This document shows positions 2,577-22,528 of a DNA stretch of 24,159 bases, one piece after another. The translations under genes and the position numbers were made by a program. Below the pieces are notes generated by a model. That model made no database searches. It was not told the origin of the DNA and saw only the letters and a list, made by a program, of their open reading frames with translations. Each line of letters starts with the position of its first letter. Position 1 is the first letter of the stretch. This stretch comes from an uncultured virus (IMG/VR IMGVR_UViG_3300050010_000596) (Duplodnaviria > Heunggongvirae > Uroviricota > Caudoviricetes). The stretch lies in IMG/VR virus record IMGVR_UViG_3300050010_000596; one strand, given 5' to 3'.

Positions 2577-2588
2577 ACCATCCGTGGC
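2577..2588 (-). promoter_or_regulatory. CsrA/RsmA-type hairpin GCC-ACGGAT-GGT just upstream of the 835-aa gene start
   Basis: Matches CANGGANG with a 3-bp stem, 3 nt before ATG 2573. Confidence 0.55.
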
Positions 2589-2613
2589 TAAAGGATGCTA
2601 AGCGACCGGGGTG

Positions 2614-3549
2614 TTACTTCCACCGCTTGTATATGGCTTCCAGTTCTTCCGGCGACGAAGGTCCACCAACGTGCGGAATCCGGTGTAACGGGGAGTCCTC
2701 TTCTTCGGTGGCCGCCGAAGCGGCACCGTGACCCAACAGCTGCGAGAACGTGGGTTTGCCTATCGGCTGGACGCCGGGAATCTTGGTATGGGGAAAGGCC
2801 TGCTGGAAGTGTTGCTGGGCCTCTTCCGATTGTCGGTACATGGGTTGATCGACTTTGTCCACGTAGTCATTCAACCCTTGTTCCCGTTGGCGTTCGAGCT
2901 GAAGCGACTGCGCCTGCTGGGCGCGCTGGAAGTTGGACAGCGGGGCGTTGATGGTGCCGGTCTCGGTCGGGTTGGTGGCCCCGTCCGGTCCGAACTTGCC
3001 CGGCTTCATGTCGGTCTGGTGAAACAGGTCGCCTGGTTCGCCGCCCGTGAGTTTGTTGGGTACCCCGGAATTGGTGGCACCGCCCGCTCGGATCGCCCGG
3101 CCCGGTGTGAGCAGCCAGTCCATCATGCGATTGTGACCACTGCTGCCGGGATCACCGGCACCGGCCGCCACACTGCCCCAGTAATTCTCCCGCTTGCCTT
3201 CCATGGTCTTGTCGCTAGCCATGGGGGCGGAGGCCATCTCGGCACCATAGTAGCCCAAAGCGGGCAGCGCGACGCCGCGACGTACGGGGTGCTCTCCGAG
3301 CCACGGCAAGAGACCCTTGGTGGGCCCCGCCGTACCGCGAAGGGCATCAACCGCATGGCGGCCGCCCGCTGCAAGATCGGAGCCGAGGCCCTGGGCCAGA
3401 TGCCCGGCAGCGCCCGCCCCTGTCATCAACTTGGGGGCGACGTGCGATGCGAACCCGCCAGCAAGGCGATCACCGCCACGGCCAATGGCCCCGCCAAGGC
3501 GCATCAGTAGCTTCTCTAAGCCTGCCTGCTTTTCGAGTTGTGTGGTCAT
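2614..3549 (-). CDS. Hypothetical Gly/Ala-rich protein (311 aa) with N-terminal EKQAG motif
   Basis: Start moved to ATG 3549 (MTTQLEKQAG) because GAGGAG lies 6 nt upstream; the ORF track starts at 3609. Confidence 0.8.
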   Translation of the reverse strand: MTTQLEKQAGLEKLLMRLGGAIGRGGDRLAGGFASHVAPKLMTGAGAAGHLAQGLGSDLAAGGRHAVDALRGTAGPTKGLLPWLGEHPVRRGVALPALGYYGAEMASAPMASDKTMEGKRENYWGSVAAGAGDPGSSGHNRMMDWLLTPGRAIRAGGATNSGVPNKLTGGEPGDLFHQTDMKPGKFGPDGATNPTETGTINAPLSNFQRAQQAQSLQLERQREQGLNDYVDKVDQPMYRQSEEAQQHFQQAFPHTKIPGVQPIGKPTFSQLLGHGAASAATEEEDSPLHRIPHVGGPSSPEELEAIYKRWK

Positions 3550-3556
3550 CCTTGAC
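3545..3556 (-). promoter_or_regulatory. CsrA/RsmA-type hairpin GTC-AAGGAT-GAC overlapping the start codon
   Basis: Perfect 3-bp stem with ANGGAN loop; contains ATG 3549. Confidence 0.6.
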
Positions 3557-3605
3557 TCCTCTCTGTCGGATTTTAATGCAATTTTGTCTGTAAGAATAGA
3601 GCGGC

Positions 3606-4298
3606 TCACATCTTAGGAGCACCGGGCAGAGAAGGCGGAGGCTTCATCGGCGCAGGTGGCTGCGCTGCTGGTGCGGGAGTCGGCGTTCGCGGAGCGGGTG
3701 CTTGCGGAGCGGGCGAGCGTTGAGGCATCGTCGGCGGACCCTGATAGTGCCAGGGAGCCTTCTCGCCTTGCTGAGGTCCGCTGCCGGTTTCGGCTCCGGG
3801 AGCCTCCAACCCGTTCTTCCAGTACCAGCTCTTGTCGCGGCCGGTGACAGCTCGCCCGTGCTGCGCTTCGTAAACGTCCCGGTTATTACCGCCCCACATC
3901 GAGTTAGATGTGCCAGGCATCAGTGAACGCAGGCCGTTCCATGCCGTACCGACCGGATGACCCACCATGGACAGCAATGGACGACCGTAACTACTCCAAG
4001 CGCCTGTACCGCCCCCAAACCGCTGCCGCTCGTGTAGATCTTCGTTGGAGGACCCCAGCCCGACCATGTCCATCGCGTTGTTCATTACGAAACCGCCAGG
4101 CGTAAAGCCTGTAGCGACGTTTACTGCATCGCCAATGTCCTCTCCGATGTTGCCCCCGATCAGACCACCAGCTACGCCACCCGCCACCGGCAGTGCTGCT
4201 TCGCCGACGTGCTTGGCAATCGTTCCCCCGAGACCGGCCTGCTTCTCGCGGACCACCAGCGCGGCGGCCTCTTTGGCCATGTAGTCGATCACGTTCAT
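3606..4298 (-). CDS. Hypothetical protein (230 aa) with EKQAG motif, glycine-zipper segment and Pro-rich tail
   Basis: ATGA overlap with the upstream beta-prime C-half stop; VAGGVAGGLIGGNIG zipper. Confidence 0.8.
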   Translation of the reverse strand: MNVIDYMAKEAAALVVREKQAGLGGTIAKHVGEAALPVAGGVAGGLIGGNIGEDIGDAVNVATGFTPGGFVMNNAMDMVGLGSSNEDLHERQRFGGGTGAWSSYGRPLLSMVGHPVGTAWNGLRSLMPGTSNSMWGGNNRDVYEAQHGRAVTGRDKSWYWKNGLEAPGAETGSGPQQGEKAPWHYQGPPTMPQRSPAPQAPAPRTPTPAPAAQPPAPMKPPPSLPGAPKM

Positions 4299-6190
4299 TG
4301 CAACACCCTCGACTTCTTGGGCTCCTGGGGAGTGATCACTTTGCCAACCCGGCCAAAATCTACGGCACGGGCCAGGCCTGGTACAAAGCTCGTACCCAGC
4401 TCGTCACTGACACCACCTCGGTGCACGCTATCCAGCAGGCTCGATTTCAGCCCACTGCCGAACATACGCGACAGCCAATCGGGGTCGTGCTGGAGGTTGG
4501 ACATGCCACGCACCATCTCCGGCTGGAAGGGTGGGGCTTCCTTGTGCACGTGCACGTTCTGCACGCCGAACTCGTTGAGATCCTTGACCACCGAGGGCTT
4601 CACCTTGGTGCCGATGGTGTAGTGCAGGTAGGGCTTCTCCAGGTACTGCCCCAGGGCTCGCTTGGGCTCCAACAGCTCCGAGCCCGGCCGGGGTTTGTAG
4701 GTGTGCTCCAGTACACTGTAAGGCACGATGTCGTCGGGGGCGTAGTCGCCCATCTCGTCGGTCAGGCGTACGTGGTTGATGAGCCCACGGGCCAGCAGCT
4801 CCAGGTTGCGGCGGTGCCCTTTGATCCCGGCATCTTTGAAGGCCTCGTGAGCGATCTGAGTGAAGTAGCGGCGGCCTTCGCCGATGCCCTTGTGTTCAAC
4901 GACTGAGGCAGGGTTGGGCAAGCCCTCACTGAGCACGTCGCCCGCCTCCACCTTGTCGCCTCGCTTGACGTGGACGTCGAAGCCGGAAGCGACGTAGTGC
5001 CGCTGGCCCTCGATCCACACATACTTGCCACCTGCCGGGGCCTCTTCGACCTTCTGTACTGTGCCGTCCAGGGTGGCGTGGGCAGCACCGCCTTTGAAGG
5101 TCTTGGGGGTTTGCACAATCTGGTTGATGGTGGCAAAACCGGAAACCTTCTTGTTGGCTACGTCCCCGGCGACACCCCCTGCGTGGCGGCTAGAAAGACC
5201 GCCCTGGTTCAAAGGCTCGGAGAGGGCCTGGGAGGCACTCATACCGACGTTCTCGCCCAAGGTGGGCAGACGGCCCCATTCACGCACGCCCGCGTCCCTG
5301 GCGTAAACGCCGCCGTCTGGCGGGCCTCCTACGGTCGGACTACGGACTAGGAGCCGCTTGACGCCCTTCTGCCGCATCGCAGAGAGAACTTTGGGAGTAA
5401 TTGTGGTGTTTCTTGGAAAACCCATTTGGGGGGCAGCCAAGAGGCTCCCCTCGCTCTCGTCGTCGTTCACGTCCACCGGCATGCCCCGCAGAGTCTCGTC
5501 GGGCTTCGCACTGTCCAGGCCAGTGATCAAGGAGCGATGCACGATCTGGTTGAGTTGTTTGCCAAAGAACCCGGCCTCTTGGGTAGCAAACTTGGTGTCC
5601 ATGGTGCCCTTGCGGGCTCCGTACGTTCCGGCCCAATACTCGGCGGGCGATAGGCCTTCGGAGTAGTTGTGCAAGATCGGGAAGGGGATCAACCGGCTAC
5701 GGTGATCCATGTACAGCATGTCGCTGCCCAGCAGGCTGCCCAGGTTGTTCTCGCTGCCACGGGCCCCGGAGCGGACCTGGTACGACGCAGGGTTATTGGC
5801 GGCCAGGCTGTCGGGCAGCAGCGTTTCCTTCTGGGCCACTTGCGCCCGCCCCATGATCCTGATGATCTGCTCTTCTCGCTGGTCGTCCGTGAGGTCATCG
5901 TTGTTGAGCACGGTATCCAACTGCGATTGCGTCTTCGCCCGCAGCTTGAGCGTGGCGGGACTCGGCAGTAGATGGTCGGGACCGAAGGATTGGCCACCCG
6001 TAGTGTAGGCGGCGTGATGGGCAATCTGCATCAAGCGAAAGGTGACGTCGCGATATTGCTCGGGATGCTGCTCGGCGAGATCCCGAAACACATCCTTCAT
6101 CCCCTTTGCGTCCATAATCCGACCCGCCCGCATTCCCGGAGGGAGTGCGCTGTCAACCATAAGCTGACCGGGGGTAGTATTACCGAGCAT
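4295..6190 (-). CDS. rpoC: DNA-directed RNA polymerase beta-prime subunit, C-terminal half (631 aa; bridge helix, trigger loop)
   Basis: SGARGS; NYSEGLSPAEYWAGTYGARKG (bridge helix, cf. NFREGL..EYFISTHGARKG); GENVGMSASQALSEPLNQ..SSRHAGG (trigger loop, cf. [25 protein letters not shown].GG); GDKVEAGDVLSEG; RBS AAGGAGG. Confidence 0.93.
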   Translation of the reverse strand: MLGNTTPGQLMVDSALPPGMRAGRIMDAKGMKDVFRDLAEQHPEQYRDVTFRLMQIAHHAAYTTGGQSFGPDHLLPSPATLKLRAKTQSQLDTVLNNDDLTDDQREEQIIRIMGRAQVAQKETLLPDSLAANNPASYQVRSGARGSENNLGSLLGSDMLYMDHRSRLIPFPILHNYSEGLSPAEYWAGTYGARKGTMDTKFATQEAGFFGKQLNQIVHRSLITGLDSAKPDETLRGMPVDVNDDESEGSLLAAPQMGFPRNTTITPKVLSAMRQKGVKRLLVRSPTVGGPPDGGVYARDAGVREWGRLPTLGENVGMSASQALSEPLNQGGLSSRHAGGVAGDVANKKVSGFATINQIVQTPKTFKGGAAHATLDGTVQKVEEAPAGGKYVWIEGQRHYVASGFDVHVKRGDKVEAGDVLSEGLPNPASVVEHKGIGEGRRYFTQIAHEAFKDAGIKGHRRNLELLARGLINHVRLTDEMGDYAPDDIVPYSVLEHTYKPRPGSELLEPKRALGQYLEKPYLHYTIGTKVKPSVVKDLNEFGVQNVHVHKEAPPFQPEMVRGMSNLQHDPDWLSRMFGSGLKSSLLDSVHRGGVSDELGTSFVPGLARAVDFGRVGKVITPQEPKKSRVLQ

Positions 6191-6192
6191 GG

Positions 6193-6204
6193 GGCCTCCT
6201 TGCC
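6193..6204 (-). promoter_or_regulatory. CsrA/RsmA-type hairpin GGC-AAGGAG-GCC enclosing the Shine-Dalgarno of the beta-prime C-half gene
   Basis: Perfect 3-bp stem with the SD in the loop, 2 nt before ATG 6190. Confidence 0.6.
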
Positions 6205-6212
6205 GAATGCAA

Positions 6213-6488
6213 TCAGTCGCCGAAGGACACTAAGGCCTTCTCTTCAGTGGTCAGCTGCGACATGATCCGTTCTTGGATGCGGGTGTCGGAGATCGAGACC
6301 ACGATCCGTTTGACACCGCTCTTGCACAACGACCGGATCTGGCTGACCTCTTGGTCGGCGATGCGGTTGGCGGCTTCGCAGTCCACCTCGGCATGCTTGA
6401 TCGCCACGCCGTGGTCGCTGACGGCCCTGGCTCCTGACCAATTCTCGTAAGACTCGATACGGCGAGATTTCTGTGGGTCCATTTCCAT
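6213..6488 (-). CDS. Hypothetical protein (91 aa)
   Basis: Fills the gap in the minus-strand array; protein-like composition. Confidence 0.7.
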   Translation of the reverse strand: MEMDPQKSRRIESYENWSGARAVSDHGVAIKHAEVDCEAANRIADQEVSQIRSLCKSGVKRIVVSISDTRIQERIMSQLTTEEKALVSFGD

Positions 6489-6500
6489 GTCACTCTCGTG

Positions 6501-6800
6501 TTAGTGGGGCTGCCGAGGGATCACCAGCGGCAGTTTCCGTTCCAGCTCCAGGGGCGTGGATGCCAAGTCCCCTAGGCTGGAGCAGATGGTTACGTGGTTG
6601 AAGCCCAGGTTGTGCAAGACCTGGTTGAAGTCTTCTTCGTTCGCGTGCGCCATGGTCACGCTGTTCATTCCGCCCTCCGGCTCGCATTGGCAGGCGACGA
6701 AGGCCGCCGTGCCGTTATCGAGTTCCATCAGGAGCACCATAATATCATCGGCGATGATTGGGCTACGATCACCGATCCTACGGAAGGCTTTTATTCTCAC
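6501..6800 (-). CDS. Hypothetical protein (99 aa)
   Basis: GTG start 3 nt after the upstream stop; globular-looking sequence. Confidence 0.7.
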   Translation of the reverse strand: MRIKAFRRIGDRSPIIADDIMVLLMELDNGTAAFVACQCEPEGGMNSVTMAHANEEDFNQVLHNLGFNHVTICSSLGDLASTPLELERKLPLVIPRQPH

Positions 6801-6803
6801 TGG

Positions 6804-7529
6804 TTAGCCTGCGTTGGCTTGTCGGATCAGGGCCTGAAGGCCGGAGGCTTGATTCACCGTGTCCAGGAAGGACGGGTTCATCACTGAGCCCCGGTTCAGG
6901 AACTGCGACTGCTTCTGAGCACCCCCGCCACCACCGGCCGCTAAGGCCGGACTCGCACCGCCCATCGGTTTGATGGGCGGGATCGACGACTGTTGCACGC
7001 CCGGTGCGGCACCGGCCGAGGCCGGGTCCTGGGCGGCTTGATTGGGATCGGCTTGCGGATCGTCGGCCGGATCGCCCAAGAGCATCTCGGGCGGCACGGT
7101 GACGCCCTGCGTCTGGAGCATGTAGACCAAGAGCTTCTTGATCTGGTAGATCTCGGTGTTGACGTCCACCTTCTTCTTAGGCATGCCGTTGGGACCCATC
7201 GCCCCTGCGCCACCCGCCCCGCCGCCCATGCCACCGCCCTGCTGGGCCGCCTGGATCATCTGCATGACCCGGTCTTCGGTCAGACCTTGAGGAGCATTGG
7301 CCGCCTGGGCTTGCAGCTGGGCGTTGACGTCGGCTGCACCGGGAGCCCCACCGCCACCGGGAGGCGGAGCGCCGCCTTGGGACGGATCGCCGCCACCTTG
7401 AGAGGGATCACCGCCACCTTGCGACGGATCGCCGCCACCGCCTGATGCAGTGGACGGATCGACAAAGGCTTGCTTGACCTGGGCACGAGCGGTGCGCAGC
7501 AGTAACGGATCGAAAAGGTTGTTGGACAT
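6804..7529 (-). CDS. Hypothetical low-complexity Gly/Pro/Gln-rich protein (241 aa) with VKQAF motif and one short helical core
   Basis: ORF with biased codon use; ordered core KKKVDVNTEIYQIKKLLVYML. Confidence 0.8.
   Translation of the reverse strand: MSNNLFDPLLLRTARAQVKQAFVDPSTASGGGGDPSQGGGDPSQGGGDPSQGGAPPPGGGGAPGAADVNAQLQAQAANAPQGLTEDRVMQMIQAAQQGGGMGGGAGGAGAMGPNGMPKKKVDVNTEIYQIKKLLVYMLQTQGVTVPPEMLLGDPADDPQADPNQAAQDPASAGAAPGVQQSSIPPIKPMGGASPALAAGGGGGAQKQSQFLNRGSVMNPSFLDTVNQASGLQALIRQANAG
7375..7437 (-). repeat. Three imperfect 21-bp tandem repeats encoding (GGGDPSQ)3
   Basis: ccttgggacggatcgccgcca / ccttgagagggatcaccgcca / ccttgcgacggatcgccgcca; differences are synonymous. Confidence 0.85.
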
Positions 7530-7534
7530 CGTTT

Positions 7535-7546
7535 ACCATCCTTGGC
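7535..7546 (-). promoter_or_regulatory. CsrA/RsmA-type hairpin GCC-AAGGAT-GGT over the RBS of the 241-aa gene
   Basis: CANGGANG with stem, 5 nt before ATG 7529. Confidence 0.6.
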
Positions 7547-7585
7547 TTTGGGAAGGCTTCCTATAGTGTTAGTGTAAAGCACCGC

Positions 7586-7798
7586 TTAGCGTTCTACCAG
7601 TCCAACCAAGTCGCCCAGGGCCCCGATCAAGGCCATCTGGTGCTTGTTGGAATAAGGTTGCGCCGCCTGTTTCTCTTCCGAGCGGGCCAGGATCGTAGCC
7701 TGCCCGTTGGCGAAGGCCCGCTTGATGTTCTCTTGCTGTTCCGTGTGGGCGTTATGGAGCAAGTTGGCGATCGTAGCGCGGGCAGTTTTCTCGTGCAT
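7586..7798 (-). CDS. Small hypothetical protein (70 aa) with three K-x-A motifs
   Basis: ATG 3 nt after the upstream stop; EKTAR, IKRAF, EEKQAA. Confidence 0.75.
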   Translation of the reverse strand: MHEKTARATIANLLHNAHTEQQENIKRAFANGQATILARSEEKQAAQPYSNKHQMALIGALGDLVGLVER

Positions 7799-7801
7799 GG
7801 T

Positions 7802-9160
7802 TCAACCTTTCAGAGACTTGAGGGCGCTCCAATCGGCAGTCAGCCCCGGAGCAATGGTACTGGCGAGGCCATGGGCTGCCTGCCCCGCGACATCGGCGAC
7901 ACCATGAGCCGCTTGTCCGGCTGCATTGACAAGCTGGGGACCGTGTCGCTGAATCAGGTCCTTAGCACCCCAAGCGCCGACTCCGGCCGCGATGGCGGCG
8001 GGAATGCCGCGCAGTGCAGTCGGTGCATAGGACAACAAGTGCTCGCCGATGAGTGCGCCTGGTTTACGAGCTTGTCGAGCCAGGTTCATTCCCAACACGT
8101 CCATCGACTTCTCGGACCCTCGGGCCATTCGCATGAACTCGCTGGGCGCTGCTACAGCGGCGCGTTCAGCCGACATAATTTCCGGGTTTACAGCGTGCAG
8201 TGCTTTTGCCGCGCTGCTGCTGCACACGTCACCTGCCCCTGACCGCATCTGCGGCAATAGTACCTGCTTGTAAACGTCCTGTAATCCCAGTTGCCGCAGC
8301 CGCCCCGTCAGCTTGTGCTTCTGAAGGAATGTGCCGACACTGCCCAGGGCGCGCGAGACGGGCCCCGCCGACTCACCAGCTACTTCATTGGCAGTGATTC
8401 GGCCCATGAGAGCTGTGTTGAACTGAGGGGCTTCCTTGCCAAAGATGGCTTGAATCCCTGGTGTAGCGTGTTCGACGACCTCTGGAGTAATTTTCATCTT
8501 GGGTCGCAAACGAATGGCGGTGGCGTTGGCTGTGTCGGCCCCCGAGACAGCGGGATGGAAGGTCTGGTACTCACCACCGAAGCCGCTGTCTCCAGGCCAT
8601 AATCCAATCACCGGTTCGTTCTTGGTAGCCTTCAACCCCGGAATCACGCCGCCTGTATCAAAATCGGCATGAGCCATACTGCCGCCACCGGCCGCTTGCT
8701 GGATCGCCAATCCTATCCGATTCGAGGGATTCTTATAATTCTCGCTGCTCAAATGCAAGATCACGTCGCCCAGCCGACTTTTGGCCGCTTCGTACGGTGT
8801 ATTGAATGTCAAGTTGCGAATGCTGGCCAGTTCACGCGCAGAAATCTCCGGGTCGGACATGGCCCCGGACATCAGGGCCTTGAAACGCAACGGCGAGTTC
8901 TTCGCCAGGTCACGTATACGGTGATAGGTATCCCAAGAAGAGATGTAACGGCCCAGTCGCGGCCCCACCGGGCCGTTCCAGAGTTCCTGCGAAGCGTCCA
9001 GCATACTCGGCACGCGGTACTTGCGATTCGCCCACGCGGCCCGGCCCAGTTGGCTGGCGGCGTAGCCGCCGCCTGCCGCGCTAGCGCCTGCGGCCAGGTC
9101 TTCACTGTCCGCTTGCTTCTCGCGTTGGGCGACCAGATGTCCGAGCGTCCTTGCATTCAT
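7802..9160 (-). CDS. 452-aa protein with EKQA leader and a probable permuted papain-like (NlpC/P60, YiiX/YaeF-type) domain
   Basis: Motif order GDVIL...SMAHA...IRLRP...DVCSS...AAPSEF matches permuted NlpC/P60 (His before Cys); ATGA overlap with the RNAP stop; the fold call is by eye. Confidence 0.6.
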   Translation of the reverse strand: MNARTLGHLVAQREKQADSEDLAAGASAAGGGYAASQLGRAAWANRKYRVPSMLDASQELWNGPVGPRLGRYISSWDTYHRIRDLAKNSPLRFKALMSGAMSDPEISARELASIRNLTFNTPYEAAKSRLGDVILHLSSENYKNPSNRIGLAIQQAAGGGSMAHADFDTGGVIPGLKATKNEPVIGLWPGDSGFGGEYQTFHPAVSGADTANATAIRLRPKMKITPEVVEHATPGIQAIFGKEAPQFNTALMGRITANEVAGESAGPVSRALGSVGTFLQKHKLTGRLRQLGLQDVYKQVLLPQMRSGAGDVCSSSAAKALHAVNPEIMSAERAAVAAPSEFMRMARGSEKSMDVLGMNLARQARKPGALIGEHLLSYAPTALRGIPAAIAAGVGAWGAKDLIQRHGPQLVNAAGQAAHGVADVAGQAAHGLASTIAPGLTADWSALKSLKG

Positions 9161-12100
9161 TTTTGTATTACCACGGGGTCATTGACGCCGATCTCGCCGT
9201 GCATGTAGGCGTTGATGGCATCTTGCTTGCTGTGGAAATAAGCCGGTCGTTTCCCTTCCTTGGGAGGCCGGGTAGCACTGAACAAACCTCCAATATACTC
9301 TTCTTCGGGGAAGTGCACAGGGGTCTTGAAGTCGGTGGGCGAGATCAGGTTCTTGCTGGGGAGCATCCGCTCCAGCGCCTCCTTCACCGCCTCGGGACCC
9401 ACGGGAACGTGGTAGTTCATCGCGTCCCCGTCGAAATCCGCGTTGAAACCCTTGCAGATCATGGGGCTCACCTGGAGCGTGTGGTTCTTGCTGAGCACCG
9501 GGTGGAAAGCCATGATGCCGAACTTGTGCAACACCGGGGCCCGGTCGATGTACACCGGCCGCTCGTCCAGTTCCTTGACCAGCTCTTCGCGCGCTAGAGG
9601 GGTGTGTTCGCGGACGTTGCGGGCGGCTTCACCGAGGGGCAAGCCTCGCCGCTTGAGTCGGCGGACGATGAACATCTTGTAGAGGTCCCAGGCGCGGGGC
9701 TCCGGCAGGCCGACCTGATCCATGTCGAGGTCAGGGTTTGGCGTGATCGCTGCGCGGCCAACCAAGTCAACAGCGGAAGATAGAAGCCGTCGTTGGACGG
9801 TGCCGTACTTAGGCGAGCTGCCGAAGATATGTTTAAGAACGCCGCCAACTTGCTTCTCCTGGAGTTTGGGGTGCAAGGGGTCGCCCAATCCGGTGACGGC
9901 CTTGAAGGAATCATACAACGCCAGTCGCTCGGCGCCTACGTCGCTGACGCTCTTCTTCATCTCGCGCAAGTTGTCGCGGGCCTCGATCAGCTCCTTGTAT
10001 AGGTAGTTGGCGTCGGCCACCAGGGGCATGTTGTTCTGCATCAACGACACCGGCCGGAAGGTCGGCGGTAAGACTGGTACCTTGTTCAACAGCCACTCAC
10101 TGGGGTGAATGCCCAGGGCGTCCGCCGACTTGAGGTAGCCCAGCTTGCGGACTGCCTGATCGCGGATCGTCGCTCGACCGCCTGCCACCTGGGCGCGGGC
10201 TGCTGCAATTGCCTTGGGAATGTTGACCGCCTCCAGGGCCCGCTGAAGTGCTTGCGGCCCCGTACCCCAGTTGCCCAGGTGTTCACTCCCAGCAAGGACG
10301 CCTCGGAACTGCTTCTCAGTCACGCCCAGGATACGGCGAATGGGTTCTTCCATCACCGGGTTCGGTAGCGGCTCATCGAGCTTGACATGCGCCCAACGGT
10401 TGCCGTTGTGGCCGCCCGTGAGGGTCTCGTCGAACAATCCACCGGCTACCGGCTTGAGCCGCTTGTCCCAGTGCACGGTGTGGCCGAACTGGATCTCGCG
10501 GCCTTCGGTCAGCTGATCCACGTCCTTGTCTGTGAGGGCCATGATGTGCGTCTTGTGCCCCTCATTGACGACGTTGATCCCGGCCGACTTCAGCTCGTTG
10601 ATGAACTTGGTGTAGACCTTCGGCACGGTGGGGTCGGGCGGTACGTTGCCCTGCATCCACTGCATCCAATACTCGGGGTTGGCCTGGCCTTTGATCAACG
10701 ACGCATCGCGGAGGACCTGGGTCGCTCCGTGGGCCAAGAGGGCGTTGGTGTCCATCATCGCCAGCCGCTTGCTTCCCGCCTCGCCGCCCTTGGAGGGTTC
10801 GCCTTGCTGAGTGTAGCCGCCCGTCCCGCGACTCTGGCCTTTGCCTTCAGCGGTGTGGTGCAGCTTCATGTAATGCCGCATACCGACCAGGATGCCTTGA
10901 CCGTCCTCGCCGGTGATCTTGCGACCTGTGGCTGGATCGACGGCTGCTTCACGGAAAGGCACGTTGTGCTGTCGTAGCTCGTTGAGCACGAACTGGGTCA
11001 TCTGCCCGTGATTCTGGAAGTCGGGGATCTTATAGGGCTGGCCGGTCTTGGCGACGATTTTCCCCAGCACTGCCTCCATTACCTGGGAGGGATTGGTACG
11101 GCTGATGATGCCGGTCGGGTTGACCAGGATCTCGAAGGGCTTACCCCGCGTGTCGTGCGGCATCTGGTCGTCGGGGACGATGGAAGAGATCACACCCTTG
11201 TCGCCATAGCGGCCGCTGAGCTTGTCGCCGACCTGAGTCGTGAACACTGACTTCACCAGCACCGTGGGGCCATGCTTGCCCATCACCACGTCGGTGACCA
11301 CGCCCGGCGACTCGTGCTTCCAGGTGAGCGAGGCATCGGCCCAACCGCGTGCTCCCTTCTTATGCACGCGGTTGTAGCCTTCGGCGCGCTGCTGGGCGGC
11401 GACCACCAAGGGATCGCCATAATTGAGAGTGGTGCCTGGCTTGACCACGCCCTGGTTGTCCAAGGTGGCCACCTGCTCGCGGTTGAACTTGCCGGGGAAC
11501 AGCGACAAGTAGGGCCGCTTGCCCGGCTTGTGGTCCTCGGTGTACTCCATCGCGTGCTGATACATGTGCTCCGACGACATCCGCTTGGAGAAGGACTCGC
11601 TGATCACCACCGCATCCTTGGTGTTCAGTCCCTTGAAGGGGAGGTAGGCCACATACGCATTCTTTCCGAGAGCTGTAGTACCGGTCTTGTCGGTGAAGTT
11701 CGAGTGTGCAAGGAGCTGTCCAGGCTCAACCCGATCTCCCGGCTTGACAACTGCTGTCTGGTGAATGTAAGTCTTGCGATTAAAGGGGAAGTTGTTGTAG
11801 AGGTCGAGCGTCTCTTTGGCCCCATCGGCGTGCTGGAGCGTAACTCCATCAGCATCAACAGACAGGACCCGAGCAGGGCCGCTACCGTTAAAGTGTAGAG
11901 CGCCCATGTGTTTGCCATACTCTTCCTCGAAGCTGCGCCCCGGCGTCTCGGGAATACCGGACTGGACCCAGGGCGCTTCGGGGTCGGCGACCGGTAAGGC
12001 CTGCGTGAGATAACGACTACCCATCGCCACCCGCTGCCCCTTGGTCATCATCTTCATGGGGATCATGTTCGACAGCGACGACATGCCGTGCTCCATCGAC

Positions 12101-13596
12101 GGCAGCACCAGATCTACCTGGTCTTTGCGGACGTAGTGCATCTGCCCGCCCTGGATCGCCCGCACCCGTTTGCCCGGCTGCTCCATTTCGCCAGGAAACG
12201 CCACAGCCAGATCGGCCACATCTTCGGGGGAGCGAAGTACGGCCTTGCCCGTTTGCGGGTTGACGAACTGCGAATAGAGTTTGCCATCGCTGCCCTTCTT
12301 GGCCCCACGGGCGATCTGAATATCGACACCCACCTTGAACGATTCGGGAGTCCGCAAGGGGTCCATGAAGCCGAAGTGCGAAGGCTGCACGCTGCGGGCC
12401 TCGTCGGGCACGGCGTCCATGGAGGGAATGCCTCCTTCGCCCAGCCGCGAGATGCGGGCTTGCTTGTCGAGCAAGTCAGCGGGGTTCACCTCTTCCAGGT
12501 GCTGTCCCAGCCCGGAGTGCAGCAGGGCGGCTTCGACTTGGCGGTTCAAGGCATTGACCGGCACGCGGCTGAGGTTCCCGGCGAAGCTGGCCTGCATCAG
12601 CAGCTTGCGGCGAACGCCGCCGTAGTCCCGCCGCAGACGCTCGGAAATCAGATCCTCGGGCCCATGGACGGTCTGGTTGGCCAAATGGTCGCGGTCGTCC
12701 ACCTCGGTCTCTCCTCGGGAGATTGCCAGCAGCTTCCGCGTGGTGTCCAGGATCGGCTCCAGACCCATGTGGGCATGGGGCTTGCCCAGCGTCCGCTGGC
12801 TGACCTTGGGGTCCAGCTCCATCTTCTCGAAGGCCGCCCGCAAGGTGTCATGCTTCTCACGGTCGTCGGCATTGGGATCGAGCTTGCGGGCCAGCTTGGC
12901 CACCAGCTTGTTGAGATTGGCCGGATTGTCCGTCTGCATGTTGGCCTGGTACAGCTTGGGACCCCAGGCTTCCATCAGCTGGCTGTCCTTGGCTCCCAGC
13001 GCCCGCATCAAGGGCATGATGGGAATCTTGGACTGCTCAATGTTGAGGTAGAAGATTCCCTTATCAGGGTCCAGGTGGTAGCGGTGGCTGGGGCCCTTGC
13101 CGGGCAAGATGTTGGCGTGGGCTTCGATCTCGCCGTTGTCCTTGATGCGGGAGTAGACGCCCGGCCGCAGCCGCTGCTGGTTGATGAGGGCCAAGTCGCT
13201 GCCGCCGTGCACGGTGGTGCCCCGTGGGGTCCACCAGGGGATGTGGGCGATGGTCTGCTTGCTCTGGTCGAGCACCTCGCCCGTGGCCTTGTCTACCAGC
13301 TCCCAGGTCCCCCGCAGCTTGCGGCTGAGGGTCTGGCCAGTAAGTAGGGCCTGCTTTTCGTCCTTGAGGCGGTAGCTCTCGGGACCGGCGTATTCTACAT
13401 CCTTCAGCCGCAGGATATGTCGCTGGTTCTCCGTGGGCTCCATCTCCTGGGCAGCAGTCAGCGCATTGTCGAAGATTGCCTTCCGCGTGGCGGGGGCATC
13501 TCCGAAGGCACGAAGCGTCAGCGGTTGCTGCTTCTTCGGGGGAGTCGGAGGCGGACCTCCGAGCGCCGCAGAAGGCTGTCCTAGCACTCGGCTCAT
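9157..13596 (-). CDS. rpoBC: DNA-directed RNA polymerase, beta subunit fused to the N-terminal catalytic half of beta-prime (~1479 aa)
   Basis: Beta motifs: RISRLGEGG, SHFGFMDPLRTPES, GDKLSGRYGDKGVIS, YMKLHH, LKSAGINV. Beta-prime motifs: GGLFDE, VPVLPPTFRP, DRAPVLHKFGIMAF, FNADFDGDAMNYHVP. Start placed at ATG 13596 (GAGG 7 nt upstream). Confidence 0.95.
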   Translation of the reverse strand: MSRVLGQPSAALGGPPPTPPKKQQPLTLRAFGDAPATRKAIFDNALTAAQEMEPTENQRHILRLKDVEYAGPESYRLKDEKQALLTGQTLSRKLRGTWELVDKATGEVLDQSKQTIAHIPWWTPRGTTVHGGSDLALINQQRLRPGVYSRIKDNGEIEAHANILPGKGPSHRYHLDPDKGIFYLNIEQSKIPIMPLMRALGAKDSQLMEAWGPKLYQANMQTDNPANLNKLVAKLARKLDPNADDREKHDTLRAAFEKMELDPKVSQRTLGKPHAHMGLEPILDTTRKLLAISRGETEVDDRDHLANQTVHGPEDLISERLRRDYGGVRRKLLMQASFAGNLSRVPVNALNRQVEAALLHSGLGQHLEEVNPADLLDKQARISRLGEGGIPSMDAVPDEARSVQPSHFGFMDPLRTPESFKVGVDIQIARGAKKGSDGKLYSQFVNPQTGKAVLRSPEDVADLAVAFPGEMEQPGKRVRAIQGGQMHYVRKDQVDLVLPSMEHGMSSLSNMIPMKMMTKGQRVAMGSRYLTQALPVADPEAPWVQSGIPETPGRSFEEEYGKHMGALHFNGSGPARVLSVDADGVTLQHADGAKETLDLYNNFPFNRKTYIHQTAVVKPGDRVEPGQLLAHSNFTDKTGTTALGKNAYVAYLPFKGLNTKDAVVISESFSKRMSSEHMYQHAMEYTEDHKPGKRPYLSLFPGKFNREQVATLDNQGVVKPGTTLNYGDPLVVAAQQRAEGYNRVHKKGARGWADASLTWKHESPGVVTDVVMGKHGPTVLVKSVFTTQVGDKLSGRYGDKGVISSIVPDDQMPHDTRGKPFEILVNPTGIISRTNPSQVMEAVLGKIVAKTGQPYKIPDFQNHGQMTQFVLNELRQHNVPFREAAVDPATGRKITGEDGQGILVGMRHYMKLHHTAEGKGQSRGTGGYTQQGEPSKGGEAGSKRLAMMDTNALLAHGATQVLRDASLIKGQANPEYWMQWMQGNVPPDPTVPKVYTKFINELKSAGINVVNEGHKTHIMALTDKDVDQLTEGREIQFGHTVHWDKRLKPVAGGLFDETLTGGHNGNRWAHVKLDEPLPNPVMEEPIRRILGVTEKQFRGVLAGSEHLGNWGTGPQALQRALEAVNIPKAIAAARAQVAGGRATIRDQAVRKLGYLKSADALGIHPSEWLLNKVPVLPPTFRPVSLMQNNMPLVADANYLYKELIEARDNLREMKKSVSDVGAERLALYDSFKAVTGLGDPLHPKLQEKQVGGVLKHIFGSSPKYGTVQRRLLSSAVDLVGRAAITPNPDLDMDQVGLPEPRAWDLYKMFIVRRLKRRGLPLGEAARNVREHTPLAREELVKELDERPVYIDRAPVLHKFGIMAFHPVLSKNHTLQVSPMICKGFNADFDGDAMNYHVPVGPEAVKEALERMLPSKNLISPTDFKTPVHFPEEEYIGGLFSATRPPKEGKRPAYFHSKQDAINAYMHGEIGVNDPVVIQK
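11625..11918 (-). CDS. Candidate nested +1-frame ORF inside the RNAP gene (97 aa, hydrophobic N-terminus)
   Basis: GAGG 6 nt before ATG; MANTWALYTLTVAALLGSCLLMLMEL; RNAP-frame codons turn A/T-ending over this stretch. Confidence 0.35.
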   Translation of the reverse strand: MANTWALYTLTVAALLGSCLLMLMELRSSTPMGPKRRSTSTTTSPLIARLTFTRQQLSSREIGLSLDSSLHTRTSPTRPVLQLSERMRMWPTSPSRD

Positions 13597-13605
13597 CCTT
13601 GAACC
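13590..13605 (-). promoter_or_regulatory. CsrA/RsmA-type hairpin GGTTC-AAGGAT-GAGCC overlapping the RNAP start codon
   Basis: 5-bp stem (one G:U) with ANGGAN loop; contains ATG 13596. Confidence 0.6.
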
Positions 13606-13627
13606 TCTGCGCCTTTCAGGGTATAAC
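13599..13627 (+). promoter_or_regulatory. Sigma70-type promoter for the endonuclease VII gene
   Basis: TTGAAC (13599-13604), 17 bp, TATAAC (13622-13627). Confidence 0.6.
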
Positions 13628-13694
13628 AAACGAACTGGCCGAAAGCTACCAACTCTCGGCCAGTTCTCACCAATCGGGTTTTGGAGGAACCGTC

Positions 13695-14324
13695 ATGGCC
13701 AAGAAGAAGTGTACCAAGTGTGGAGTCGAAAAGCCACGCGATGCGTTCGATAAGAACCGCAACAAGCCCGATGGCCGACAGGCCTGGTGTAAGCTGTGTC
13801 GACAAAGCCACGTTAAATCTCCCCGCAGGCGGGCATACAAGCGTACCTACGACAAGGCCAATCGTGCAAAACACAAGAAAACAAATCGTACGTACTACCA
13901 GGCCAATCGCAAACGTATTCTGCTGAAACGACAAGACCAATCCTACAAAATCCGTGATCGCGACAGTGAACTGCGACGGCTGTATGGAATCAGCCTCGCA
14001 GAGTACGCCGAGCGGTACGAGGAACAACAAGGCCGCTGCAAGATATGCAAACAGCCAGAGACTGCCACGTTCCGTGGCCAGGTACTCAATTTGGCTGTGG
14101 ATCACGACCATGGGACTGGAAAGGTTCGAGGGTTGCTTTGTGTAAAATGTAATCACCTACTCGGCGCTGCAATGGACAGCACGACGATACTCGCCAGAGC
14201 CATCTTGTACCTGCGTGCTTCTCAGTCCTCTCCGGTTTCATCCTCGTCCAATACGTCCCCGCCCAACTCCGTGGCACTGGGGGCCGGAGCCCCGGTCTGC
14301 GTCACCGGCACCGGCCGGGCGTAA
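13695..14324 (+). CDS. Free-standing homing endonuclease of the endonuclease VII (His-Me) family with an N-terminal Zn-finger
   Basis: RBS GGAGG then MAKKKCTKCGVEKPRDAF...WCKLC; YGISLAEY...QQGRCKIC...LAVDHDHGTGKVRGLLCVKCNHLLG; A-rich and inverted relative to neighbours. Confidence 0.92.
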   Translation: MAKKKCTKCGVEKPRDAFDKNRNKPDGRQAWCKLCRQSHVKSPRRRAYKRTYDKANRAKHKKTNRTYYQANRKRILLKRQDQSYKIRDRDSELRRLYGISLAEYAERYEEQQGRCKICKQPETATFRGQVLNLAVDHDHGTGKVRGLLCVKCNHLLGAAMDSTTILARAILYLRASQSSPVSSSSNTSPPNSVALGAGAPVCVTGTGRA

Positions 14325-15169
14325 ATGGGGGCGGGCCGCATGGTGGCCATCTCCCGCCGATGCTGCTTCTCGGCCTTGGCCAAGATCGCAGCCGGTTGGC
14401 GCTTCCTGAAGTAGTCGTAGGTGGCGTTGCCCGTCAGCCCGGCAATCGCGCCGCCCGTCAGCAAGTACACCCCCAAGGCCTTGCCGATGGCTCCTTGGCC
14501 AAACCCCCGCTTCTGCATCTCGGCGGCGACCTTCTCCCAGGCGTCCGCCAGCCGATCCAGCTCGGCCCCTAATTGTTGGCCTGCCGTCTTCTCTCCGGCC
14601 GTCTTGTGCTCCTGCTGTTGCAGCAAGGCCTGCTCATAGTCCTGGCGGGCCTTGGCCAGCTCCGTTTGCCGCGAAGACTTGTTCTGCCGTTTGAGCAGGT
14701 AGTTCATCAGCTTATAGCCGCCCACGGTGCCCGCCCCCAGCGAGGCCCCCATCGTGGCCAGCCCCAGGGGATGGCTAGCCAGATCGGTAGCGTAGTCGCC
14801 GTGCATGATCTGCCCCGCCGTGTCGGTGATACTGTCCAGCAGCCCAGCGTTCTTGCGACGGGGCATCTTGGGCGGCAAAGGCGCAGACGGAGAGCGGGGC
14901 GGCCCTGCGGCGGCCATCTTCTTCTTGTGGTTCTGCTCTTCCGGGTAGGGGATGTCCGAGATCACCGGCGAGTAAGGCGAGTATAGGGTGCGCGGCGGAT
15001 CAGTGAGGTTCCGGCGCAGCAAGTTGGCCAGGCCCATCAGCCCCGCCCCGCCCGCACCGGCCGCCCCGCCCAGCATCATCCACTTGGGAATGCTGCTGGT
15101 CAGGCCCTCGTTGAGGATCTGCGAGCGTTGTTCACGAACTGACTTGGCCATTTCTTCCAGGCTGGGCAT
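14222..15169 (-). CDS. Hypothetical protein (315 aa) with three glycine-rich hydrophobic segments separated by K-x-A motifs
   Basis: LGGAAGAGGAGLMG, LGLATMGASLGAG, LGVYLLTGGAIAG; KKMAA, RKNAG, HKTAGEKTAG, EKVAA; GGAG RBS. Confidence 0.8.
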   Translation of the reverse strand: MPSLEEMAKSVREQRSQILNEGLTSSIPKWMMLGGAAGAGGAGLMGLANLLRRNLTDPPRTLYSPYSPVISDIPYPEEQNHKKKMAAAGPPRSPSAPLPPKMPRRKNAGLLDSITDTAGQIMHGDYATDLASHPLGLATMGASLGAGTVGGYKLMNYLLKRQNKSSRQTELAKARQDYEQALLQQQEHKTAGEKTAGQQLGAELDRLADAWEKVAAEMQKRGFGQGAIGKALGVYLLTGGAIAGLTGNATYDYFRKRQPAAILAKAEKQHRREMATMRPAPIYARPVPVTQTGAPAPSATELGGDVLDEDETGED

Positions 15170-15172
15170 GTT

Positions 15173-15550
15173 TTACTCCATGAAGGGCAGGCGACTCTGC
15201 GGAACCTCCATCGCAGGCTCCGTATATTCGACGTAGGCGACCATCGGAAACGATCCATCCGGCTGTTGCACCCGCTCCACCTTCCGCATCAGACAACGGT
15301 AGAGACGATTCAGGCAGCCGTCGATGATCGTACGGTACTCTTGTAGCTGTTCGGGGATGCTGAGGTTGAACTCCTTGATATAGACCTCGTGCACGACCTC
15401 GGCCAGGGCCTGGAACTCTTCTTCCTTGAGCATGTGCGGGCGGCCTCGGTAAGGCATCCCGTCGATGTTGGCACGATGGAAGGAGAGGGGACCACGCCCA
15501 TTGCCTTTGAGGATCTTTTCGTCTTGTGCATACTTCAGGAAACTGCTCAT
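15173..15550 (-). CDS. Hypothetical protein (125 aa)
   Basis: ATGA overlap with the upstream gene; globular-looking sequence. Confidence 0.8.
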   Translation of the reverse strand: MSSFLKYAQDEKILKGNGRGPLSFHRANIDGMPYRGRPHMLKEEEFQALAEVVHEVYIKEFNLSIPEQLQEYRTIIDGCLNRLYRCLMRKVERVQQPDGSFPMVAYVEYTEPAMEVPQSRLPFME

Positions 15551-15990
15551 ACCAGGTCTCGATAGGCGCTCCGGTGCTGACCTTTCGCGGCCCGCTGCTT
15601 TTCGGCGTCCGCTGTGTTAGCGCGCGTGGCTTGCATCGCCAATCGATAGGCGTCCACCTTCTCTTGGGTCTTGAGGTCGTCCGGGGACTCGTCGCTGCCG
15701 CCCGTGAGCTTGGCCAAGCCATAGCCGCCTACGGCTCCGAGGGCGGGCGGGGCCAGCAACGCGGCCGGGATGCCATAGGACAAGGCCGAGGTGGCCATGG
15801 ATTGCCCCATGTCCATGCCTTTGCCGGTCAACATTTTCAGCCCCGAGATGATGTCGTCGAGAATGGCGGTCTTCTGTAACGTATCCGCAGCGGTCTTCAC
15901 CCGGTGGACGGTCTCTTCGATTGTCAGACCCTGATCGACGCAGTGCATCAGCATTGCAACCTTCAGGGATTCCCTTGCGGTAAGTGCCAT
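15547..15990 (-). CDS. Hypothetical protein (147 aa) with VKTAA/QKTA motifs and one hydrophobic segment
   Basis: RBS GGAGG; GIPAALLAPPALGAVGGYGLA. Confidence 0.8.
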   Translation of the reverse strand: MALTARESLKVAMLMHCVDQGLTIEETVHRVKTAADTLQKTAILDDIISGLKMLTGKGMDMGQSMATSALSYGIPAALLAPPALGAVGGYGLAKLTGGSDESPDDLKTQEKVDAYRLAMQATRANTADAEKQRAAKGQHRSAYRDLV

Positions 15991-15994
15991 CTCT

Positions 15995-16006
15995 GTCCTC
16001 CGTGAC
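15995..16006 (-). promoter_or_regulatory. CsrA/RsmA-type hairpin GTC-ACGGAG-GAC enclosing the RBS of the 147-aa gene
   Basis: Perfect 3-bp stem, 4 nt before ATG 15990. Confidence 0.6.
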
Positions 16007-16540
16007 TTAGGGCACGACGATGCGTGGTTTCTTTACTTCGGCGGCCGGTTTGGCCTTGGGCATATTGGGCCGTTGGACGCCCTTGTGCGGGTCCTTCTTG
16101 GCGGCCCGCGCGGGAGCAAACTCCAGCGAGCTGTTGGCAGGCATGGGCATGATCTTGGGACGACGACGGCGGCGTTCTTCGGCCACGTCGTGCATGTCGT
16201 CCAGCGGACCGCCCTGGGTCTTGGCTTGCTTGATCACCGGCTCCATGTCGGAGACGAACTTCTGCATGCGGTTGACTTCGTCGCCCATCAGCCCTTGCTT
16301 GCGGGTGTTGTGCACCATCTGGCTAAGGCCTAGCACGCGGTAGGCAGCTTCTTGCCAAGGCATCGAGCCGTAGCTGTTGTCCTTGCTGTCTTCCCAGTGC
16401 ACCAGCCCCCGCTCGGCCCAGTAGCGGACCACGGAGCCTTTGCCCCAGAGCGGAAACTGCTTGGCGACGTTGGCGTCGAAATTGGTGTAGATGTTCGCGC
16501 CTCGGGGGGCGCGAGAGCGGGTCAAGATGTGCTTTTCCAT
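16007..16540 (-). CDS. Hypothetical protein (177 aa) with basic C-terminal tail
   Basis: ORF in the minus-strand array with biased codon use. Confidence 0.8.
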   Translation of the reverse strand: MEKHILTRSRAPRGANIYTNFDANVAKQFPLWGKGSVVRYWAERGLVHWEDSKDNSYGSMPWQEAAYRVLGLSQMVHNTRKQGLMGDEVNRMQKFVSDMEPVIKQAKTQGGPLDDMHDVAEERRRRRPKIMPMPANSSLEFAPARAAKKDPHKGVQRPNMPKAKPAAEVKKPRIVVP

Positions 16541-16565
16541 CCTTGGAACCGAAGTCCTTCCTTGG
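16535..16565 (-). promoter_or_regulatory. Tandem CsrA/RsmA-type sites CC-AAGGAA-GG and TTCC-AAGGAT-GGAA, the second overlapping ATG 16540
   Basis: Two CANGGANG matches, the second with a perfect 4-bp stem; a C-UUCG-G element lies between them. Confidence 0.6.
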
Positions 16566-17464: not shown

Positions 17465-18611
17465 CGTGACCTCCAAACGCAATCGGCACGATATTGGCAA
17501 TCGCTCCAGCCCACATCCCTGTTTGCTTGAGGTGCTCCTGGGTCTCTTCCGGCATCCCCATCAAGGCCCCCAAGGCTCTACCCACGAGGGCCCCCGACAT
17601 GTAGCCCGTCCCCATCCCTGCGGTCATGCGGGCCACATCCATCGCCGAAATCAGTGTAGCTGGCCGTCCTTCGCCTGCCAAGTGCGCTGCCCCGGTGATG
17701 AGCCCCGTGGCAAGAGCCTGGGTCTGCGGCGGCAGCTGTTGCGAGACCACGGGGTCGTGCCACACGGTCTGATTAAACTGCTCGACGTTGATCGGTGGGG
17801 CATCCATGCCAGGAAAGGGGCGGTCGTTGTTCTCGTCGCCACCGAAGCCGATGTTCTGGACCGGCGTCTGCCACCACGGATAGCCCGACTCGGCAGTCTT
17901 GATGTCCGGTTCGCTGGCGATGCCTGCGTCGGGCTGGCCGCCAAATGGCCAATGCTCAGTGATGCTCTTGCCGTTCTTCAAATTGGCGTAGGCCCACAGG
18001 GCTCCCGGAGCCACGCCCGCCAGGCCGCCCAGCATGGCCCCCGTCCGCCGCCCGGTCCCTTCTCGCTGCCAGGACTCAGGCATGGCGCTCTCGGCCAAGG
18101 AGCCCAGGCCATAACCTGCTCCGGCACCCAGCAGGCCTGTGGCCAGCATCGCGGCCACAGGACTCGGCCAGTGCTCACCCTGGAACAGGTCCGCGTTCCA
18201 ACCGCCCACGGCCTCCAGGCCTCGCAACGTCGGCGAGAAGGCCCGCTTTTCTTGGTAGTACACCGCCTCGTATGGCCGCATGGCAATCTTCACCACGGGT
18301 GGATCACACTTCGGGTCGCCATAACCGATGGCAGGCTGATACCGATCTACACCACAGGGGAAGGTCAGGTAGTCGTACGGCAGGTCGTCCAGCATCTCGT
18401 GCCAGGCATCCACGTTGGCGGCCTTGGCCAGATTGATGGTCAGCATCTCGTCCGGCCAATAGAAGGCGTCGATCAACTCACGCGGACGCCACTGCGACAT
18501 TACCCGGACATCCTCCGCAGCCGTCTTGCAACGCTCGGCCAGTGCCAGCGCCAAGATCGGCACGGCGGCCCATGTCTCGCGTTCCTTGTCTACCAGGTAT
18601 TGGCCGAGCAT
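17454..18611 (-). CDS. Hypothetical protein (385 aa) with glycine-zipper segments and K-x-A motifs
   Basis: TGATG overlap with the upstream gene; EKRAF, IKTAE; GLLGAGAGYGLG, GAMLGGLAG, GMGTGYMSGALVGRALG. Confidence 0.8.
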   Translation of the reverse strand: MLGQYLVDKERETWAAVPILALALAERCKTAAEDVRVMSQWRPRELIDAFYWPDEMLTINLAKAANVDAWHEMLDDLPYDYLTFPCGVDRYQPAIGYGDPKCDPPVVKIAMRPYEAVYYQEKRAFSPTLRGLEAVGGWNADLFQGEHWPSPVAAMLATGLLGAGAGYGLGSLAESAMPESWQREGTGRRTGAMLGGLAGVAPGALWAYANLKNGKSITEHWPFGGQPDAGIASEPDIKTAESGYPWWQTPVQNIGFGGDENNDRPFPGMDAPPINVEQFNQTVWHDPVVSQQLPPQTQALATGLITGAAHLAGEGRPATLISAMDVARMTAGMGTGYMSGALVGRALGALMGMPEETQEHLKQTGMWAGAIANIVPIAFGGHGAA

Positions 18612-19045
18612 CAATTGTCCTCACGCGCACGACAGTTGCCCGTCTCCGACTCGAAGACGGTCACGGTCGGGTAGTCTTTGGGCGGACGGTCGTACACATA
18701 CACAGCCACCGGATGGCGGTGGTACGCCCCCGTCAGGCAGATGTGCGGACCGTCTAACATCCCATCATACCGTGAAGGTACGACCCAGTCGATGTGGGGT
18801 TCGTCGTCGAAGACCTCGCTGGCCATGGGCAGGCAAAAGCTGAACGCCACGCGGAAGCGTTTACCGTCGTCAGGGCCTGGCTCCAACAGCTCAGCTCTGG
18901 TAGGGAAGATCGCCACGCAATGTGGTTCGCGTTTCCACTTCTCCCGTGGAACGTAGCTGTGGCCCATCACAATTGTAGGGATCTCGGGGGTCATTGCCGC
19001 CGAGACTTCTTCCACCAATCGTTGTACCCACTTCGGCTTACCCAT
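18611..19045 (-). CDS. Hypothetical protein (144 aa)
   Basis: AAGGG RBS; globular sequence (PKWVQRLVEEV...AIFPTRAEL..GPDDG...GPHICLTGAY). Confidence 0.75.
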   Translation of the reverse strand: MGKPKWVQRLVEEVSAAMTPEIPTIVMGHSYVPREKWKREPHCVAIFPTRAELLEPGPDDGKRFRVAFSFCLPMASEVFDDEPHIDWVVPSRYDGMLDGPHICLTGAYHRHPVAVYVYDRPPKDYPTVTVFESETGNCRAREDN

Positions 19046-22508: not shown

Positions 22509-22528
22509 GACTCGGTCTCCTTATATAG

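Follow-up and report, generated by a model that had tools for sequence, protein, structure and literature searches.

CsrA-type hairpins as predicted translational operators on the genes of an uncultured phage with its own multisubunit RNA polymerase

CsrA is among the best-understood bacterial translational regulators. The mRNA leaders that it represses include those of glgC, cstA and pgaA in E. coli, finer consensus strings for its binding site are CANGGANG and RUACARGGAUGU, and a CsrA dimer spans a second GGA site at 10–63 nt. The Pseudomonas plasmid pQBR103 carries a regulator of this family, CsrA/RsmQ, which is described as acting on host mRNAs. In phages, T4 RegA is a translational repressor of early mRNAs and the coat protein of MS2/PP7 binds an operator hairpin. 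An excerpt of Sobrero and Valverde (2020; PMC7366521) describes CsrA targets as 'short hairpins exposing unpaired ANGGA', the first G being read by a conserved Arg, and reports csrA alleles in 30 of 2517 phages and also on plasmids; in an excerpt of PMC9144972, the csrA gene gp47 of Burkholderia phage JC1 is called a 'moron'. Phage csrA genes have so far been listed without a known role. Here, we describe seven hairpins on the minus strand of a 24,159-nt stretch of DNA from an uncultured virus (IMG/VR record IMGVR_UViG_3300050010_000596; the whole stretch is hereafter the window). By sequence comparison, the window belongs to a large uncultured phage that encodes a multisubunit RNA polymerase (RNAP) of its own, and the hairpins lie on the translation starts of seven of its genes. 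With a probability of roughly 0.6, they are predicted to be CsrA/RsmA-type RNA translational operators that occlude the ribosome-binding site or the AUG, and the family to which the phage belongs probably uses such hairpins to regulate how its genes are translated.

As in leaders repressed by CsrA, RsmA or RsmE (RsmE–hcnA, PDB 2jpp), GGA lies in the A(N)GGA(N) loop of a short, C–G-closed hairpin over the Shine–Dalgarno (SD) sequence or start codon, and a small dimeric CsrA belongs to the system, here at least in relatives of the phage. By contrast to those systems, in which targets are a minority of cellular mRNAs, the sites described here are predicted from sequence on 15–45% of the SD-type starts of the phage's own genes, those of RNAP included; moreover, the regulator is phage-borne in most relatives and no sponge sRNA was seen. 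Like the clade studied here, pQBR103 brings its own Csr-family regulator on a mobile element, but RsmQ is described as acting on host mRNAs, whereas here the genes of the element itself bear the sites. T4 RegA and the MS2/PP7 operators resemble the present proposal in that a phage protein, acting on the initiation region of its own mRNAs or on an AUG hairpin, shuts off translation; their protein families and RNA motifs are unrelated to those considered here. Published phage csrA alleles share with the clade a phage-carried PF02599 gene, but in the excerpts of PMC7366521 and PMC9144972 they are morons whose action is on the host and whose role is not known, with no target sites on phage genes, whereas here the phage's own starts bear the predicted operators. 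With ANGGA exposed in short hairpins, the window sites fit the description of CsrA targets excerpted from PMC7366521. Full-text literature searching, mostly judged from abstracts, found no description of CsrA operators that a phage carries on genes of its own; phage csrA genes are already known, and such a regulon on phage genes was not found in the literature searched.

All seven hairpins listed in a first-pass annotation of the sequence were recovered on the minus strand, with stems that differ in sequence and yet pair. They follow a common plan (7/7) of a 3–5 bp stem, made of a C–G closing pair and 2–4 further pairs, around an A(A/C)GGA(T/G) hexaloop (ACGGAT, AAGGAT, AAGGAG or ACGGAG), so that the GGA core sits in an A(N)GGA(N) loop at every site. 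The SD or the start codon is overlapped in all seven, in two registers. For four genes (starts 2573, 6190, 7529 and 15990) the loop is the SD sequence, its A lying 11–14 nt from the AUG. These are GCC-ACGGAT-GGT (2577–2588; 12 nt from loop A to AUG) of gene 66–2573 (835 aa, no known function); GGC-AAGGAG-GCC (6193–6204) over the SD of the gene for the C-terminal part of RNAP β′ (β′-C; 4295–6190); GCC-AAGGAT-GGT (7535–7546) over the SD of gene 6804–7529 (241 aa, no known function), with a second GGA 20 nt upstream; and GTC-ACGGAG-GAC (15995–16006) over the SD of gene 15547–15990 (147 aa, no known function). For the other three genes (starts 3549, 13596 and 16540) the distance from the loop A to the AUG is 4 nt: the last two loop bases are the first two of the start codon, whose A is also the A of GGA, and a distinct purine-rich SD is found further upstream. 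In this register, GTC-AAGGAT-GAC (3545–3556) contains the AUG (3549–3547) of gene 2614–3549, which has a separate GGAG SD 8 nt upstream; GGTTC-AAGGAT-GAGCC (13590–13605) contains the AUG (13596–13594) of a fusion gene for RNAP β and the N-terminal part of β′ (β′-N; 9157–13596); and TTCC-AAGGAT-GGAA (16535–16548) contains the AUG (16540–16538) of gene 16007–16540 (177 aa, no known function). Since these three sites place GGA on the AUG with a separate SD upstream, SD function alone does not explain the motif.

The second site announced beside the 16535–16548 hairpin was likewise present, as CAAGGAAG at 16557–16564 (element 16546–16564), followed by a GGAC-TTCG-GTTC tetraloop hairpin, as read from the sequence. 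The 3′ arm of the latter has bases 16546–16548 in common with the 5′ arm of the AUG hairpin, and the two would be alternative pairings. Presence of hairpins on both RNAP genes, also claimed in the first-pass annotation, holds: both minus-strand genes were identified by Pfam (Rpb2_6, 179 bits, and Rpb1_2, 84 bits, for the β + β′-N fusion; Rpb1_5, 61 bits, for β′-C, which has 2829 homologues) and by PHROGs. The β′-C start at 6190 is backed by residues T6, G8 and Q9, near-invariant in 37 homologues, and its choice matters because an alternative gene-caller version of the protein is shorter (606 aa, 25 codons less). Folded alone, the seven hairpins have free energies of −0.6 to −4.9 kcal/mol, the latter for the 5-bp hairpin at 13590–13605, and two of the seven, this one included, were retained in the minimum-free-energy fold of 66 nt. 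Such weak free-standing stems suit a site stabilised by protein rather than an autonomous structure.

Enrichment at gene starts was assessed by counting minus-strand ANGGAN motifs between −25 and +3 of 22 curated starts, a stem being scored at 3 bp or more with G–U pairs allowed. Stems flanked 7 of 17 near-start motifs versus 6 of 111 elsewhere on the minus strand (Fisher p = 2.2e-4), in line with the proposed excess of stem-flanked motifs over the intragenic background. An automatic start rule (ATG or GTG located 3–16 nt downstream, opening a frame of no fewer than 80 codons and preceded by no more than 40 open ones), applied to both strands of the window, gave 8/17 near starts and 11/178 elsewhere. 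The two intragenic CAAGGATG copies said to lack an extended stem were confirmed at 1799 and 11613 and do not figure among the sites with a stem of at least 3 bp, and none of the four ATGA-overlapped genes (starts 4298, 9160, 15550 and 18614) has a hairpin, as claimed. As a correction to the first-pass annotation, a hairpin is not found at every gene with its own intergenic spacer: starts 19045, 22508 and 22825 and a doubtful open reading frame (ORF) at 6687 have a spacer and no stem. The clear spacer genes among these (19045, 22508 and 22825) lie at the high-coordinate end; the hairpin set is thus a subset, and not the whole, of promoter-distal starts.

The same pattern was found across related phages. 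An alignment search with the β′-C homologues provided 80 IMG/VR loci, 47–63% identical and with 41–66% G+C, to which the automatic rule was applied. Stems of at least 3 bp flanked 193 of 621 near-start ANGGAN motifs and 541 of 8035 motifs elsewhere (p = 1.5e-65, the loci being related). Dropping identical 42-nt contexts left 149 stemmed and 303 unstemmed near-start sites; stems ranged from 3 to 8 bp and the closing pair was C–G in 118 of the 149. Out-of-clade controls under the same rule yielded a total of 1/56 (Salmonella phage Arash 1/22, phiKZ 0/17, E. coli 0/17). Whole records of two relatives that carry csrA were also enriched, with stems at 32/117 (27%) of near-start sites versus 92/1371 (6.7%) elsewhere in G001, and at 23/139 (17%) versus 88/1324 (6.6%) in G003.

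Covariation was analyzed on every near-start CANGGANG irrespective of stem; the window, the 80 loci and five whole records together provided 270 distinct contexts. The pair next to the closing C–G (pair 2) was formed in 83% of the contexts, versus 46% expected from column composition; the corresponding values were 67 versus 38% for pair 3, 59 versus 38% for pair 4 and 48 versus 39% for pair 5, pairs 6–7 being at chance level. For pairs 2–4 the observed pairing was matched in 0 of 2000 shuffles, which ignore relatedness and make the p-values generous. By contrast, the 1552 sites elsewhere were near chance, within 5 points of the expectation at each pair, pairs 2 and 7 nonetheless exceeding nearly all shuffles. 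Stems near starts used all Watson–Crick pair types plus G–U, and G–T and T–G together made up 41 of the 225 formed second pairs. Since such pairs would mismatch on the other strand, the stem is strand-specific; the varied pair types and the share of G–U indicate an RNA stem rather than a DNA palindrome. Covariation over four pairs in 270 family sites points to a stem that presents the loop and is maintained by selection.

Orthologous starts were compared with those of G001, whose proteins are 42–58% identical over the compared genes. A hairpin was present at the orthologous start for five of the seven window sites, with different stems: TCC-ACGGAT-GGA for GCC/GGT in the window at the 835-aa gene (66–2573), GGGCA-ACGGAA-TGCCT for GGTTC/GAGCC at the β + β′-N gene (9157–13596), GTC-AGGGAT-GAC for TTCC/GGAA at the 177-aa gene (16007–16540) and GCTGTC-AAGGAG-GACGGC for GTC/GAC at the 147-aa gene (15547–15990). 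At β′-C the register differs, the hairpin lying on the SD in the window but on the AUG in G001. Among the G001 genes with a hairpin are those for RNAP subunits, for a terminase-like protein and for a peptidase, the majority being of no known family. The first-pass annotation had proposed a possible lytic/late switch that would gate the phage's RNAP; no clear temporal class emerged among these genes (30 of the 32 hairpin ORFs were scanned, two that straddle sequence pieces being left out).

The search for CsrA genes covered the source records of 38 of the 80 loci (five chosen first, then the remaining 33 contigs with a length of 140 kb or more) and used PF02599 at the Pfam curated cut-off. Such genes were found in 27 of the 38 records (3/5 first picks, 24/33 others) and, among records at least 90% complete by CheckV, in 19 of 22, in one of them only by summing two pieces. 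Scores were 40–85 bits in 26 records, versus a cut-off of 27, and 32.7 in G036 only as the sum of two pieces. The encoded proteins are genuine CsrA family members by PF02599 score, length and conserved Arg: they are 57–96 aa long, resemble cellular CsrA at the N-terminus and retain the conserved Arg before the C-terminal helix. The G001 protein aligns with RsmE of the RsmE–RNA complex 2jpp (residues 1–54, E = 2.6e-16) and with E. coli CsrA 1y00 (residues 1–56), and its nearest named cellular relatives, among the best 120 matches, are planctomycete CsrAs. An ANGGAN hairpin lies on 10 of 30 distinct phage csrA starts, as expected for autoregulation. The first-pass annotation had suggested a host or self-encoded CsrA and a search for csrA homologues or GGA-repeat sponge sRNAs: neither was found in the 24-kb window, whereas csrA was found in relatives as described.

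The interpretation as a CsrA-read translational regulon is thus supported strongly, though indirectly, by motif fit, covarying stems throughout the clade and the csrA genes of near-complete relatives, and lacks a csrA gene in the window. According to it, a dimer of the CsrA family would clamp the weak ANGGAN hairpin over the SD or AUG and keep the 30S subunit off, which would lower or time translation of a set of phage genes including both RNAP genes. The dimer would be phage-encoded in most relatives, and in the phage of the window it may come from the host. CsrA as the binder, repression as the effect and the presence or use of CsrA in this phage are what we infer from these comparisons.

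Several results weigh against this reading. An HMM (hidden Markov model) of 31 phage CsrAs run on six frames, and Pfam run on ORFs, found no csrA in the window, which covers 24 kb of a 148-kb contig; among the best 120 matches of two protein searches there was no CsrA from that contig (148,159 bp, carrying the β′-C protein of the window), a result that neither shows nor excludes a csrA gene in it. Three complete relatives, G009, G032 and G038, have no csrA detectable by Pfam or by a custom HMM of phage CsrAs. Two of them are still enriched in hairpins at starts, G038 with 13/85 (15%) versus 84/1282 (6.6%) and G032 with 18/125 (14%) versus 75/1505 (5.0%), G009 being the only flat one (4/66, 6%, versus 60/1257, 4.8%). 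Because enriched hairpins persist in G038 and G032, room has to be left for a CsrA of the host or for a binder that escaped detection. Within 22-kb loci, csrA-carrying records had 66/206 stemmed near-start sites versus 4/25 in csrA-less complete records, a weak trend in the expected direction; the link between a csrA gene and hairpin enrichment is a trend and not a rule. Conservation over the 80 loci is partial, the hairpin being found at 9 of 64 distinct starts for β′-C and at 8 of 17 for the 835-aa gene, and the family near-start counts rest on the automatic rule rather than on curated gene calls, in related loci that are not independent. As for a GGA-repeat sponge RNA, the window gave no Rfam match (E ≤ 0.1), and no cluster of three or more hairpins within 200 nt was found in the window, G001 or G003. 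Finally, another GGA lies at 10–63 nt from five of the seven sites, which says little because GGA is common.

An RNA structure acting by itself is an unlikely alternative. The hairpin would then show the SD or AUG in its loop, or cap the 5′ leader, and would set initiation or mRNA stability without CsrA, in agreement with the enrichment in G038 and G032, the lack of csrA in the window and the fact that the loop is the SD at four of the seven sites. At the other three, however, GGA on the AUG is too near to serve as an SD. Furthermore, the loop is held to ANGGAN with C–G closure, which is the CsrA recognition pattern and not that of any SD variant, the stems are too weak to persist alone, and csrA is kept in most near-complete genomes of the clade (19/22).

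Retention of hairpins in csrA-less relatives would also suit another phage-encoded RNA-binding protein or endoribonuclease, outside the CsrA family, as reader of the hairpin, comparable in function to T4 RegA or RegB; in its favour, too, is the lack of a known family for the majority of clade proteins. We consider it rather improbable: no candidate was found, the small ORFs of the window having no family or CsrA-like sequence, the motif is close to the CsrA target, and csrA itself bears the hairpin at a third of its distinct starts (10/30).

A DNA-level promoter or operator palindrome, read by the phage RNAP or by a DNA-binding protein, is very improbable. The phage does have its own multisubunit RNAP, and CTATAGG/TTAGG-like strings precede some starts, both in the window and in relatives. 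Against it stand the G–T and T–G pairs (41/225), the placement at one of two set distances from the AUG (4 nt or 11–14 nt), conservation of the loop and closing pair alone with a stem sequence free to vary, and the restriction to the coding strand (the plus strand of the window has two near-start sites, neither of them with the element). Chance or SD composition, with stems as a selection artefact, is scarcely credible: ca. 6% of any ANGGAN has a 3-bp stem when G–U pairs are allowed, and this explanation is contradicted by the counts in the window (7/17 versus 6/111) and relatives (193/621 versus 541/8035), the controls (1/56) and the covariation.

Returning to CsrA-read operators, a wider proposal can be framed, to which we would give somewhat less than an even chance. 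In it, a widespread clade of environmental phages of 150–230 kb with their own multisubunit RNAP would run a private Csr circuit, in which phage CsrA represses itself and, by way of the covarying ANGGAN hairpins, a fifth to half of SD-type starts, including those of the RNAP genes, csrA-less members using host CsrA. If so, viral csrA genes would gain a concrete job, and phage gene timing a new layer, translational and protein-mediated, comparable to T4 RegA; the private circuit would amount to a global shut-off of translation, RegA-like, for which a bacterial regulator had been captured, and operators of csrA-less members, plugged into host CsrA, would tie phage expression to the physiological state of the host. 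The targets are easy to test, consisting of seven defined hairpins of 12–16 nt and the 64-aa CsrA of G001, and the motif is a simple signature by which such regulons could be flagged in phage sequences from metagenomes.

As for the csrA genes themselves, five relatives (G008, G010, G012, G013 and G037) each have two copies far apart, and one group of copies encodes 96-aa proteins with a long Thr/Ser-rich C-terminal tail. In G001, csrA is found 1.6 kb upstream of the gene orthologous to 18611–19045 of the window and in the opposite orientation, a place taken in the window by other minus-strand genes. Small ORFs of the window were considered as a hidden CsrA and discarded, as they showed no family match and no CsrA-like sequence. 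In the csrA-less relative G032, two adjacent CAAGGATG/CACGGATG hairpins no more than 20 nt apart (112250–112427, minus strand) were the sole cluster from the sponge scan. The RNAP gene occurs on genome contigs binned with many unrelated taxa of metagenome-assembled genomes, including Gemmataceae and Planctomycetia; like the planctomycete affinity of the CsrAs, this is a hint only as to the host.

The β′-C protein has 2829 metagenomic relatives at E ≤ 0.001, on contigs of 150–235 kb, and the closest cultured relatives of the polymerase, ca. 30% identical, are those of Salmonella phage Arash and Vibrio phages D69, D181 and D148. Several β′-C homologues elsewhere are lengthened, with intein or LAGLIDADG domains. 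DNA of the window is contained in peat metagenome runs, and two peat metatranscriptome libraries include small contig pieces of it, 99% identical, from which strand and transcript ends are not readable and which may derive from DNA carry-over.

The minus strand holds every credible gene of the window except one, and many of the remaining genes have no assigned function; a search for tRNA genes found none in the window. The only plus-strand gene, 13695–14324, with a GGAGG SD and divergent from the RNAP β gene, is a homing-endonuclease-like ORF of the Endonuclease VII family (PF02945, 82.9 bits). A minus-strand ORF, 13593–14156, is probably spurious. Contigs of DNA run X2 diverge into unlike sequence at 13689 and 13720, and the endonuclease ORF may be absent or different in a near-identical population. 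In the divergent spacer, ca. 35 nt upstream of the RNAP β start, a terminator-like 10-bp G+C-rich inverted repeat is followed by a T-rich run (13630–13665, minus strand).

Strings resembling CTATAGG, CTATTAGG or TTTTAGG stand just upstream of several starts or hairpins, in the window at 7547–7575 and 22509–22525 (minus strand) and in loci L016, L018, L019 and L034; they could be phage RNAP promoters or overlaps of a stop codon with an SD. Gene 19683–22508 (minus strand, 941 aa) is ATP-dependent DNA-ligase-like (phrog_114) and gives a weak intein-splicing-domain signal, below the cut-off (PF14890, 27 bits). Lastly, head-to-tail 27-nt repeats at 23990–24159, running off the end of the window, code for the collagen-like part of a laminin-G/collagen tail-fibre-like protein.

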